Source of the DNA: a virus
IMG/VR virus record: IMGVR_UViG_3300029742_000017
Reading direction: 5' to 3' (one strand)
DNA length: 33,399 bases
Shown in pieces: positions 7,870-10,757 of the stretch (the stretch's first letter is position 1; each line of letters opens with the position of its first letter). The notes beneath the pieces are model-generated. The model ran no database searches, was not told the origin of the DNA, and saw nothing but the letters and a program-made list of their open reading frames with translations. A program made the translations under genes and the position numbers.

Positions 7870-9535
7870 ATATGCCAGCTGGTGCCTGGAAGCTGATAAT
7901 CGAAAAGTGCCCAAATACGTTAAACTGCAGGCGGCGGACTGGATCAAGATTGCAGACGGAGAGGATGAAGCGGCCATCGTGGACGAGGAAAGCTTTGAAA
8001 AGATATGCAATCTGCTGAGACTGATGATCCATCCGGATCTAAAAGTCACCATGTACGAAGGACTGGAGGATTATGCGTGGTTTTTCATCACGGCGACACT
8101 GTGTACAAAGCATAAAGACAATAGGAATGTTCGTTTCTACACGACAGCAGTTCTGGAAATCGCAAGAAAGAATTTTAAGACGTTCAACAGCGCAGTGATT
8201 TTCATTATCCTGCTACTGACTGAACCAGAATTCTCGAGATTCTTTTCTGTGGCGCCGGATTTATCCCTTTCGTCAGAGTTGAAACTGGCGGTCAGGAAAA
8301 TCATAAAATCAAGTCCTGCACTCATGGATGAAGAAGAGCCTGCATTCAAAATACTTCGCAGTGAAATTATCTGCCAGCTGAATGAGAATACCTACACGCC
8401 TCTGGCATATGGTAAAGACAACATGGACGGGAAGCAGGCGAACGCATTCCTGGCTGATGAAGCGGGAGCACTGGACGAGTATCCGGTAGAAGCGATGAGA
8501 TCGTCCCAGATCATGCTGGAAAATAAACTGGGGATCATTATCAGCACTCAGTATCCGAATGACAATAATGTCATGACGGATGAAATAGATATTGCAAAGA
8601 AAACCCTGGACAAACTGCTGGAGGATCGGACGACGTTCGCTCTTCTGTACGAACCGGATGAGGAATTTCAGCAGGGGGATGAATGGAAGAACAACGATCT
8701 GTGCATATACCAGAGCAACCCGGTAACAGTAGATCACGAGCGGGTGTTCGAGGATCTCGTAAAGAAGCGGCAGATGGCCGTTCTTTACGAAAATAAACGC
8801 GAAAATTATCTTTGCAAGCACAATAACATCAAGTATAAAGGTTTGGGCGTCGAGGGCTATATCGATATCCAGAAAGTGCGACGCTGCAGGACTGAAAAGA
8901 ATAAAGAATTCTGGAGAGGGAAACGTGTCTGGATCGGGCTGGACCTTTCAGAATCAGATGATAACACGGCTGCCGTAATGGGGACAGAGTTTGAGAATGA
9001 AATTTATGTACAGGCTTTTGGATTCACACCGGAGGATCGGATCGAGATCAAAAGTCACAAGGAGCGTGTTGATTATAAACGGCTGATCCGAAATGGAGAT
9101 TGTTTCGCCTGTGGTGATGAAGTTATAGATTACCTGCAGGTCGGACATTTTATAGCGGAAAAGCTTAGAGAAGAATATGGAGTAGAAATACAGCAAGTGG
9201 GATATGACCGATGGAACGCACTGGCGACGATCCAGAGTCTTGAAGCGGACGGTATCGAATGCGTGGAGATAAGGCAGCACAGCTCGGTACTCCATGCACC
9301 GACCAAATGGACCAGGGAACTCATACTAAAAAGACAGCTAAAGTATTTCGAAAATCAAATGCTGGAGATCAATTTTCAAAATGCACGTTGCACAGAAGAT
9401 ACCAATAAAAACAAGTATGTGAATAAGAAAAAGTCGACCGGGAAAGTGGATATGGTCGTAGCACTGCTGAACATGATGTATCTGATTCAGCAGCATAAGA
9501 TCAACGGAGACGATTTTGTAGTTCAGATAGCATAG
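7844..9535 (+). CDS. terL: Terminase large subunit (Terminase_1-like)
   Basis: Length, position, Walker-A-like IARKNFKT, Walker-B-like FLADEAGAL, nuclease-domain GLDLSESDDNTAAV; GTG start 9 nt after GGAGG. Confidence 0.85.
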   Translation: MIKQSKAYKYASWCLEADNRKVPKYVKLQAADWIKIADGEDEAAIVDEESFEKICNLLRLMIHPDLKVTMYEGLEDYAWFFITATLCTKHKDNRNVRFYTTAVLEIARKNFKTFNSAVIFIILLLTEPEFSRFFSVAPDLSLSSELKLAVRKIIKSSPALMDEEEPAFKILRSEIICQLNENTYTPLAYGKDNMDGKQANAFLADEAGALDEYPVEAMRSSQIMLENKLGIIISTQYPNDNNVMTDEIDIAKKTLDKLLEDRTTFALLYEPDEEFQQGDEWKNNDLCIYQSNPVTVDHERVFEDLVKKRQMAVLYENKRENYLCKHNNIKYKGLGVEGYIDIQKVRRCRTEKNKEFWRGKRVWIGLDLSESDDNTAAVMGTEFENEIYVQAFGFTPEDRIEIKSHKERVDYKRLIRNGDCFACGDEVIDYLQVGHFIAEKLREEYGVEIQQVGYDRWNALATIQSLEADGIECVEIRQHSSVLHAPTKWTRELILKRQLKYFENQMLEINFQNARCTEDTNKNKYVNKKKSTGKVDMVVALLNMMYLIQQHKINGDDFVVQIA

Positions 9536-9545
9536 GAGGAGAACA

Positions 9546-10757
9546 AGGGTTTTATTTCGAAGAAAGCGAGCAGAACCAGAAGAAAATACAGTGGATGAAA
9601 ACGCAGTAGCAGAACCGCTACTGCGCGCATGGCTTTCGGGGGAAAACATGACGCGTGCGAAAGCTATGCAGATTCCGTATGTTGCCGGAGCGATCAATGA
9701 GATTGCGAAAACAGTGGCCAATATACCGATCAGGCTCTACCGAAAGGAAGGAAAAAAGGTAATCGAGATAGCTGACGACCCACGGGTATTTTTGCTGAAC
9801 GAAGAGACGGGAGACACACTGGACGCCAACCAGATGAAGCAGGCAGTGGTTCGGGATTACTACCTTGGCCGGGGCGGATATATATACGTCAACTGGGACG
9901 GGCTAGATGTGGAATCGCTCCATTACGTTTTTAGTGAGTATGTGGCGATCGCACCGAATACCGATGTGATTTTCAAAGATTATGCAATCCTGATACAGGG
10001 ACGGACATATTTTCCTGATCAGTTCATCCGTGTATTGCGAAATACAGATAACGGAATGCAAGGAAACAGTATCGTGGATCAGAACAGTATGGCGCTGAAT
10101 GTGGGATACAGTACTCTGGAGTACGAAAAAGGCTTAGTGAAGACGGGTGGAAACAAAAAAGGATTCGTCAAATCGGCGAGGAAGCTGTCACGAGACGCTA
10201 TTGATGCGCTGAAAAATGCGTGGAAAAGACTCTACCAAAACAACACGGAAAATGTAGTGATCCTGAATGAAGGTCTGGAATTTCAGGAAGCCTCGAACAC
10301 GTCCGTAGAAATGCAGATGAATGAAAATAAAAAGACGAACGGAGAAGAGTTTCGCAGATTACTGGGGATTCCGGATGATCTGGGAGATGAAGCGGGCGAT
10401 AAAGCTTTTATAAAATACTGCATAAACACCTTTATGGGCGAGTTTATGACGGCACTGAATCGGGCGCTTTTGCTTGAATCAGAAAAAGGCACATACTACT
10501 TCGCTCCGGATATGTCAGAGCTGACCAAAGGCGATATAGACAAGCGATATGAAGCGTATAAAGTTGCTGCAGACACTGGATGGCTGCAGCTTGATGAAAT
10601 ACGGGCAATCGAAAATAGAGAGCCGCTTGGAATTGATATGATCAAGTTAGGTCTTCAGGATGTTCTCTATAATCCAAAGACGTCAGAAATTTATATTCCA
10701 AATATGAACAAAAGCTATAAGATCAAGGAAGGAGGTTCACAAGAAGGGCAACAGTAA
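9546..10757 (+). CDS. Portal protein (HK97 family), proposed AGG start
   Basis: Portal-like sequence and position. GGAGG 9535-9539, then an in-frame AAGG at 9545-9548. The first canonical start (GTG 9591) has no SD and would remove the family-typical N-terminus (x)VLFRRKRAEPEE. Confidence 0.8.
   Translation, partial: RVLFRRKRAEPEENTVDENAVAEPLLRAWLSGENMTRAKAMQIPYVAGAINEIAKTVANIPIRLYRKEGKKVIEIADDPRVFLLNEETGDTLDANQMKQAVVRDYYLGRGGYIYVNWDGLDVESLHYVFSEYVAIAPNTDVIFKDYAILIQGRTYFPDQFIRVLRNTDNGMQGNSIVDQNSMALNVGYSTLEYEKGLVKTGGNKKGFVKSARKLSRDAIDALKNAWKRLYQNNTENVVILNEGLEFQEASNTSVEMQMNENKKTNGEEFRRLLGIPDDLGDEAGDKAFIKYCINTFMGEFMTALNRALLLESEKGTYYFAPDMSELTKGDIDKRYEAYKVAADTGWLQLDEIRAIENREPLGIDMIKLGLQDVLYNPKTSEIYIPNMNKSYKIKEGGSQEGQQ

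Follow-up and report, generated by a model that had tools for sequence, protein, structure and literature searches.

An initiator-like phage tRNA with a CCU anticodon, and candidate AGG start codons of late genes in a human-gut phage

Introduction

Where does translation of the portal gene begin in a phage genome in which the codon standing behind the Shine-Dalgarno (SD) sequence of that gene is AGG? This question is raised by the IMG/VR virus record IMGVR_UViG_3300029742_000017, whose 33,399 nucleotides are the window analyzed here. The same genome encodes a tRNA with the anticodon CCU, tRNA(CCU), and the comparisons described below suggest that this tRNA is quite likely an initiator that reads AGG as a second start codon of late genes. 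In its broader form, the explanation that we consider likely is a natural orthogonal initiation system, in which initiators derived from the bacterial initiator tRNA (tRNAfMet) were switched to CCU in many temperate phages of human-gut Clostridia and the starts of virion and lysis genes were converted from AUG to AGG. Late protein synthesis would then need the phage initiator, and would probably begin with (formyl-)arginine, not formylmethionine (fMet).

The portal gene start

The terminase gene terL (7844-9535, plus strand) has a GTG start with AGGAGG 9 nt upstream and ends with TAG at 9533-9535. This stop overlaps the SD sequence AGGAGG of the next gene (9534-9539, plus strand; GGAGG at 9535-9539), which is followed by a 6-nt spacer, AGAACA (9540-9545), and by an in-frame AGG (9546-9548, plus strand) with A at position -1. 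The portal frame is open only from 9531, an in-frame TAG occupying 9528-9530 just before, and reads CAT AGG AGG AGA ACA AGG GTT TTA TTT CGA AGA AAG CGA GCA GAA CCA GAA GAA AAT ACA GTG. The last of these codons, GTG 9591-9593 (plus strand), is the first in-frame ATG, GTG, or TTG, and the gaagaaaataca upstream of it contains no SD sequence. The terL stop, the GGAGG with the in-frame AGG behind it, and the lack of an SD sequence at GTG 9591 had been noted in a preliminary description of the locus, and every sequence statement made there was confirmed. The 14 codons at 9549-9590 (plus strand; 15 with the AGG) encode VLFRRKRAEPEENT, a basic N-terminal peptide that is conserved and would be missing from a protein begun at GTG 9591.

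From these features and the homologues described below, AGG 9546 is very likely the start of the portal gene, and GTG 9591 is most likely an internal Val codon. Re-annotated in this way, the gene spans 9546-10757 (plus strand) and has 403 codons plus a stop, compared with 388 amino acids when gene callers begin at GTG 9591. Its product is an ordinary HK97-type portal (PF04860) that matches the Phage_portal profile with E = 2.5e-45 over residues 46-357 and is encoded in the order terL, portal, S78 protease, capsid.

Portal homologues with canonical starts begin M-[GAP]-L-F-[KR][KR][KR]-x-RAEPE, and their ATG corresponds to the AGG codon of the window. More distant homologues (66-75% identity) begin MGLFRKKVRAEPE, MALFKRRVRAEPE, MPLFRRRVRAEPE, or MAFWAKKVRAEPE. 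The basic N-terminal peptide of this portal subfamily (M-x-L-F-K/R-K/R-K/R ... RAEP) is present in the window as (AGG)-VLFRRKRAEPEENT. The supposedly untranslated segment is therefore homologous to real N-termini, with AGG on their Met codon. This alignment with HK97-type portal N-termini had been proposed in the preliminary description; its outcome supports the claims made there that the portal starts at the SD-served AGG and that the upstream codons belong to the protein, since the homologues carry the upstream segment and its codons vary synonymously. A protein search with the extended portal recovered relatives at 95-100% identity in 42 clusters, every one of which is annotated with the GTG as its start (MDENAVAEP).

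To this we added relatives' DNA from IMG/VR, GTDB genomes, and human-gut metagenomes. AGG occupies the portal start codon 6-9 nt past a strong SD sequence in 28 distinct sequence contexts, at 59-99% portal identity. The peptide xLFKKK-RAEP following the AGG is kept through synonymous changes; for RAEP, the relatives' portals use five Arg, three Ala, two Glu, and four Pro codons, a signature of translation in that frame. In two loci (L002 and L068) an in-frame stop directly precedes the AGG, so no start is possible upstream. The first canonical codon lies 7-86 codons downstream of the AGG across relatives. Within the first 35-43 codons examined, L002 and L080 have no canonical codon, and in L037, a longer copy of L002, the first one is 40 codons down. 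Near-cognate starts (ATA, ATT, and TTA) were looked for near the portal AGG, and none is conserved across relatives.

When ordered by overall identity, portals with ATG and portals with AGG are intermixed, so the two codons must have been swapped repeatedly. For example, the L171 portal (ATG) is 80% identical to those of L181 and L038 (AGG), and the L195 portal (ATG GCA TTT TTT) is 81% identical to that of L208 (AGG GCA TTT TTT). Locus L171 is mixed, with an ATG portal start and AGG starts of protease and capsid genes, and the close relatives L170 and L172 have canonical starts only. Such repeated switches argue against a single inherited accident.

Probable AGG starts in six further late genes

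The preliminary description concerned the portal alone. Six other late genes in the window are alike, a matching, initiator-like tRNA(CCU) is encoded 2.9 kb before the portal, and the trait sets apart a whole group of gut phages. We scanned the window for a strong SD sequence, a spacer of 4-11 nt, AGG, and a long open reading frame (ORF). For comparisons, a strict AGG start was defined by a strong SD sequence 5-10 nt upstream, an ORF of at least 100 codons, and no in-frame canonical start from the upstream stop to the codon or in the next four codons. Under the strict definition there are 7 AGG sites in the window, compared with 4 in 447 kb of relatives with canonical-start portals. All seven genes have a strong SD sequence, a distance of 6-10 nt, and an in-frame AGG, with no usable canonical start; in the six besides the portal, no in-frame canonical start lies between the upstream stop and the AGG.

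The six genes, all on the plus strand, encode the prohead protease, major capsid, tail tube, tape measure, a carbohydrate-binding (CBM) protein, and a CHAP endolysin. The prohead protease (Peptidase_S78, 10745-11371) has its SD sequence AGGAGG at 10730-10735 with a spacer of 9, and its first canonical codon is GTG 10793; it begins AGG GCA AGA ATT GAA where a homologue has TTG GCA AGA ATA GAA. The major capsid gene (PF05065, 11371-12534) overlaps the protease stop in a TAAGG, with the SD sequence GGAGG at 11357-11361 and the first canonical TTG at 11428. For the tail tube gene (14238-14777; SD AGGAGG at 14226-14231, spacer 6), canonical codons are absent until TTG 14427, 63 codons on, and a start there would delete the conserved N-terminus KVKFNI.NVHYA; the alignment reads AGG CCT AAA GTA AAA TTC versus ATG GGT AAG GTA AAA TTT. 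The tape measure gene (15325-18081; SD AGGAGG at 15312-15317) starts with AGG right after an in-frame TAA and reads (AGG)-AGRIKGITIELDGD, aligned with M-AARVRGITIKLNGD and M-AGKIKGITI, so that AGG falls on the homologues' ATG (M-AARVRGITI, M-AGKIKGITI). The gene for a CBM_5_12-containing tail or host-recognition protein (19912-20598) begins in a TAAGG overlap behind the SD sequence AGGAG at 19897-19901. Finally, the CHAP-domain endolysin gene (22668-23402; SD AGGAGG at 22655-22660) begins in a TAAGG overlap with the holin stop, and its first canonical codon is TTG 22776 (codon 37), 36 codons on. The Pfam CHAP match runs from residue 39 onward and opens at profile position 10; the domain should therefore begin at about residue 30, and a start at codon 37 clips its N-terminal end.

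As called, the window ORFs at 9591, 10793, 11428, 14427, 15379, 19942, and 22776 are shortened by 15, 16, 19, 63, 18, 10, and 36 residues, respectively. Because gene callers ignore AGG, public collections (including the portal entries P0001-P0042) hold only N-terminally truncated versions. ATG or GTG is kept by the HNH, terS, terL, connector, and holin genes and by all early and lysogeny genes. Two further SD-AGG sites were seen in the window. The site at 5501 coincides with codon 45 of a Rep-like ORF (5369-6223) in the reading frame of that gene, has the usual context A-AGG-GCA, and might give a shorter isoform with the tRNA; the other, at 16958, lies within the tape measure gene in another frame, opens a 62-codon ORF, and is probably due to chance.

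The tRNA with anticodon CCU

The sole tRNA of the window (6661-6734, plus strand) lies upstream of HNH-terS-terL. It was found with ARAGORN, scores 49.9 bits against the Rfam tRNA model with positions 1 and 72 flagged as a non-pair, and is labeled tRNA-Arg by standard software after its CCU anticodon, which reads AGG. A fully paired acceptor stem, including 1:72, is needed for use by EF-Tu. The acceptor end of the window tRNA has an A1xA72 mismatch followed by G2:C71, C3:G70, and G4:C69, with A73 and an encoded CCA, and by this predicted pairing it is of the bacterial initiator type. For the formylase Fmt, the chief determinant is a 1:72 mismatch combined with the pairs 2:71 and 3:70 (PMC5389676). 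The anticodon loop is CUCCUUA, with U37, on a stem of A29:U41, G30:C40, and U31.G39, and the D stem has U11:A24.

Of the traits of an elongator tRNA-Arg(CCU), the window tRNA has the CCU anticodon but not the paired 1:72, A20, or a purine at 37; the genuine tRNA-Arg(CCU) of Escherichia coli, argW, has G1:C72, A20, and A37. The nearest annotated phage features are tRNA-Met and not tRNA-Arg. The CAU anticodon of tRNAfMet is replaced by CCU.

The family to which this tRNA belongs was gathered independently of the portal, by an anticodon-arm pattern search of IMG/VR (86 stretches) and by ARAGORN on all loci, and consists of 46-47 distinct sequences. Positions 1 and 72 are unpaired in 45 of 46 distinct members (AxA in 27, CxA in 10, GxA in 5, CxU in 2, and UxU in 1), and all other stem positions form pairs in 44-46 of 46, where compensatory changes are plentiful. 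G2:C71 is present in 45/46, C3:G70 in 46/46, and A73 in 46/47. In the anticodon stem, 29:41 is G:C in 27 and A:U in 19, 30:40 is G:C in 45/46, and 31:39 is U.G in 43 and C:G in 3, although the search pattern fixed positions 30, 31, 39, and 40 for most members. The loop sequence CUCCUUA, and with it U37, is found in 45/47; position 20 is occupied by U in 22, by A in 15, and by another base in 10. The tRNA of locus L095 is 78% identical to E. coli tRNAfMet (CGCGGGG...CCCCGCAACCA), the D arm, variable loop, and GGTTCAAATCC T loop being alike.

In many relatives (L043, L088-L090, L094, L190-L191, L195-L208, and L217-L224) tRNA(CCU) is joined by tRNA-Ile(UAU) and sometimes by tRNA-Met(CAU) or tRNA-Lys(UUU). 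Those neighbors that were inspected by eye look like ordinary elongators, since their acceptor stems are normally paired. Near the tRNA(CCU) of L084 (IMGVR_UViG_3300023300_000078, approximately 1682-2712) are two more tRNAs, one with the anticodon UCA (called tRNA-SeC), expected to decode UGA, and one whose anticodon was called as four bases (gaat); this phage may combine start-codon and stop-codon recoding. Matches to the tRNA family at 75-81% identity also occur in unannotated stretches of GenBank records MT135284, MT135287, and MT135291 (porcine "Inovirus sp.," about 5 kb), MT837733, and LR756500-LR756503 (uncultured very large phages), and are candidates for an initiator-type tRNA or an attachment site.

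Linkage of the tRNA and AGG starts

Co-occurrence was examined in deduplicated loci with at least 7.5 kb of sequence upstream of the portal. AGG starts and the tRNA are found together in 31 loci and both are absent from 24; 2 loci have an AGG start only and none has the tRNA only (Fisher p = 4e-14). The two exceptions, L057 and L069, are evidently spurious AGG hits. Where present, tRNA(CCU) shares the strand of the portal and precedes it by 2.9-6.6 kb. Across 123 tRNA-bearing loci, 219 strict AGG starts are downstream of the tRNA and 3 upstream, compared with 123 and 143 for ATG. The genes affected are virion and lysis genes, and such a concentration in late genes is characteristic of tRNA-dependent recoding in phages. 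When all 64 codons were scanned in tRNA-bearing loci, only ATG (150) was counted more often than AGG (94), and the codons ranking after AGG are mostly shadows of neighboring AGG sites; the corresponding counts in controls are 121 for ATG, 14 for GTG, 11 for TTG, and 4 for AGG. Loci found via the tRNA alone carry AGG-start genes of unrelated capsid, portal, and tail families, suggesting that the trait spans several phage lineages.

Besides the 7 SD-AGG gene starts in the window, there are 136 distinct contexts in relatives. The base at -1 is A at 88% of AGG starts, compared with 46% of ATG starts (p = 1e-14), and is never C. TAAGG stop/start overlaps make up 61 of the 136 contexts (45%), and the two tRNA variants with A37 still have A(-1). 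Inside genes, AGG accounts for 12.5% of Arg codons in phages with the tRNA and 25.5% in relatives without it (p = 1.4e-4), which could reflect selection against accidental internal initiation.

A possible mechanism

In the mechanism that we propose, tRNA(CCU) would be transcribed with or just ahead of the late mRNAs and processed out of the transcript. It would then be aminoacylated, most likely with Arg because of C35 and U36 (and A20, which a third of family members have but the window copy does not); Met is unlikely because the CAU anticodon is missing. Host Fmt may formylate the charged tRNA through the acceptor-end determinants, and the 1x72 mismatch would bar it from elongation. IF2 would place it in the P site of the 30S subunit, where CCU could pair with the AGG positioned by the SD sequence. 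The conserved A(-1) may add a fourth contact, to U37, or may just reflect the TAAGG overlaps. Translation of virion and lysis proteins would in this way depend on a phage-made RNA. A speculative purpose is that late genes would stay silent in the lysogen, with their translation tied to late transcription. Initiation with this pair is feasible, since an engineered E. coli initiator tRNA with CCU, combined with AGG as the start, ranked first among twelve orthogonal pairs in six strains, where it gave inductions of 35- to 402-fold (bioRxiv 10.64898/2026.04.16.719103).

Several observations weigh against an initiator function of tRNA(CCU). The initiator-type A11:U24 is present in 33 of 46 family members, whereas the window copy has the elongator-type U11:A24. 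Three consecutive G:C pairs in the anticodon stem (29:41, 30:40, and 31:39), otherwise nearly universal in initiators, are missing from the window tRNA, and its U31.G39 is oriented opposite to that of the natural au/GC/gu variants. A20 is an identity element for arginyl-tRNA synthetase (ArgRS) in E. coli, and the window tRNA, with G20, is without this element. Basic aminoacyl groups are also poor substrates for Fmt in E. coli, as shown for Lys. A fourth base pair between U37 and A(-1) is a weak proposition, undercut by the TAAGG overlaps and by the A37 variants, and the co-occurrence and codon-usage statistics take no account of shared ancestry. A dual or purely elongator role of tRNA(CCU) is a less probable reading.

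Alternative explanations

Could AGG be read without a dedicated initiator? One improbable explanation is that host fMet-tRNAfMet reads AGG inefficiently with the help of a strong SD sequence, and that the CCU tRNA is an unrelated elongator tRNA-Arg serving codon supply or evasion of host defenses. Codon usage is the common explanation for phage tRNAs, a portal need be made in only 12 copies per virion, and low-level initiation by tRNAfMet at AGG does occur in E. coli (PMC6868393; also in bioRxiv 10.64898/2026.04.16.719103). However, such a start is mis-initiation and is suppressed by initiation factor 3 (IF3), because AGG does not have U as its middle base, as all natural start codons do (PMC6868393), and the AGG genes include those for the major capsid, tail tube, and endolysin, which are in high demand. 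As to the elongator part of this explanation, an unpaired 1:72 in 45 of 46 variants is no elongator trait, internal AGG is lower and not higher in phages with the tRNA, and the tRNA both co-occurs with AGG starts and sits upstream of them.

It is very unlikely that the annotations are correct and that initiation takes place at the first canonical codon (for the portal, GTG 9591), with the upstream in-frame stretch as an untranslated leader. GTG is a legitimate start codon, and 42/42 database clusters of close relatives are called from it. Against this, GTG 9591 is without an SD sequence, and the first canonical codon wanders over 7-86 codons among relatives. The upstream codons show amino-acid conservation with synonymous change and match the N-termini of ATG-start homologues. 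Canonical starts would also cut conserved N-terminal or domain sequence from the tail tube and endolysin.

We give similarly little credence to models with no dedicated initiator in which terminating ribosomes re-initiate, slide, or frameshift and AGG is kept merely as part of an SD-like sequence. The genes are tightly packed, 45% of AGG starts overlap a TAA stop, and AAGG is itself SD-like. However, known bacterial re-initiation needs a start codon and an initiator tRNA (PMC2268962). More than half of the AGG starts have no stop overlap, and the portal AGG is 10 nt beyond the terL stop and in another frame. The matching tRNA and its initiator-type acceptor end would be left unexplained. Fusions of the TerL-portal kind or similar are implausible and excluded by in-frame stops; a TerL-portal frameshift fusion in particular was rejected on the arrangement of frames and stops. 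An upstream extension of the portal frame by read-through or recoding of TAG, from TTG 9516 before two in-frame TAGs, is improbable as well: all ORFs are intact under code 11, and the stops in L002 and L068 adjoin the AGG.

Although AGG is one substitution from ATG, there is next to no chance that a misread ATG, or an inactivating mutation in a defective prophage, explains a codon that recurs in dozens of independent assemblies (the 28 contexts at 59-99% identity) and in seven genes of one genome, a closed circular contig whose ORFs are otherwise intact and conserved; a sequencing error or single mutation was ruled out by this conservation. Reassignment of AGG has been reported in some uncultivated Bacilli, and AGG meaning Met (or another residue) throughout the phage or host would account for AGG at a Met position. 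This is hardly credible here, since internal portal AGG codons align with K/R columns, which ruled out reassignment to another amino acid, AGG aligns with the conserved Arg of LLRAW in relatives, and the tRNA features are of the initiator and not the elongator type.

Comparison with known systems

To our knowledge, all natural initiation described so far uses an initiator with a CAU anticodon and start codons that are AUG or its single-end-base variants. Our literature searches found no natural initiator tRNA with a non-CAU anticodon and no use of AGG as a regular start codon; their coverage was incomplete, and absence from them is no proof. The nearest counterparts of the pairing of AGG with tRNA(CCU) are engineered systems and suppressor-tRNA recoding.

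Natural non-AUG starts read by tRNAfMet include GUG, UUG, CUG, and AUU/AUC/AUA (for example, the AUU of infC). As with AGG, the codon that follows the SD sequence and enters the P site is not AUG. They keep the U at position 2 and differ at the wobble-tolerant end, whereas AGG changes the central base, against which IF3 proofreads, and a matching tRNA is supplied. With bacterial tRNAfMet itself, the phage tRNA shares the 1x72 mismatch, G2:C71, C3:G70, A73, and the loop ends C32 and A38, and in most members A11:U24. It differs in having CCU and not CAU, in the lack of three G:C anticodon-stem pairs, in U37 in place of A, and in its amino acid, which is probably not Met.

Engineered orthogonal initiation, with an amber initiator tRNA-CUA or with i-tRNA-CCU and AGG (bioRxiv 10.64898/2026.04.16.719103), is similar to the phage pair in the use of AGG and CCU, in an initiator body that is kept while the anticodon is changed, and in the placement of the codon after an SD sequence. 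The engineered initiators are laboratory point mutants of E. coli tRNAfMet that retain the three G:C pairs and A37. In contrast, the phage tRNA is natural and diverged, has A:U, G:C, and U.G in its anticodon stem and U37, and is tied to defined late genes in many gut phages.

Stop-codon recoding in gut phages (e.g., PMC10879173) is alike in that a phage tRNA alters the meaning of a codon, in its association with late structural and lysis genes, by which the making of late proteins comes to depend on an RNA of the phage, and in its occurrence in the human gut. That recoding acts at elongation and termination, where UAG or UGA is read as an amino acid, while the AGG system would act at initiation and the sense codon stays Arg inside genes. 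No stop-codon recoding by a suppressor tRNA is apparent in the window, where the ORFs are intact without it. Ordinary phage elongator tRNAs, which serve codon compensation or escape from host tRNA-targeting defenses, resemble tRNA(CCU) in being phage borne and in the label tRNA-Arg(CCU); they differ from it in that the family reported here has an unpaired 1:72, U37, no internal AGG excess, and a tight link to SD-AGG starts.

The phage and the neighborhood of the tRNA

Window positions 1-99 recur unchanged at 33301-33399, so the assembly closes into a circle and represents a whole phage genome of about 33.3 kb; contigs of 33-34 kb are common among the relatives. The phage is siphovirus-like and belongs to human-gut Clostridia. 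A gene for a large serine recombinase (Resolvase, Recombinase, and zinc-ribbon domains; 24436-26025, minus strand) marks it as temperate. The early region is made up of PcfJ-like, DUF3102, and Rep-like genes. Among the relatives is a prophage of Anaerostipes butyraticus JCM 17466 (locus L080). Among cultured phages in the phage collection, none exceeds 48% portal identity and none clearly has tRNA(CCU).

A small sigma-70 region-4-like protein is encoded directly upstream of the tRNA (6236-6544, plus strand). It is followed by a promoter-like site, TTAACA-16-TAGAAT (6550-6577), a 16-bp hairpin without a U tract (6614-6654, plus strand; dG -27.1 kcal/mol, z = -6.05) ending 7 nt upstream of the tRNA, the tRNA itself, and the SD sequence of the HNH gene, the first gene of the packaging and structural block. 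The sigma-70 region-4-like gene and the promoter-like site look like a late-gene activator followed by a late promoter, and the hairpin may be a processing or regulatory element for the tRNA or the late transcript. In relatives, T-rich stretches are found just upstream of the tRNA in place of the hairpin.

Implications

In practical terms, gene callers clip the N-termini of the portal, protease, capsid, tail tube, tape measure, and endolysin proteins in such phages. The portals in 42/42 database clusters lack 15 residues, and 63 are missing from the tail tube and 36 from the endolysin; the tRNA is labeled tRNA-Arg. Since a cultured host, A. butyraticus JCM 17466, carries a prophage of the same type, the proposed role of tRNA(CCU) is directly testable.

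If it is correct, the genetic code would have a new kind of flexibility, at initiation, in the form of a dedicated initiator tRNA for a sense codon that differs from AUG in its central base. This would be a natural counterpart to the engineered i-tRNA(CCU)/AGG systems. Proteins of these phages may then begin with an amino acid other than Met. For the phages themselves, dependence of AGG starts on a phage-encoded initiator would be a new way of gating late-gene expression, parallel to stop-codon recoding.

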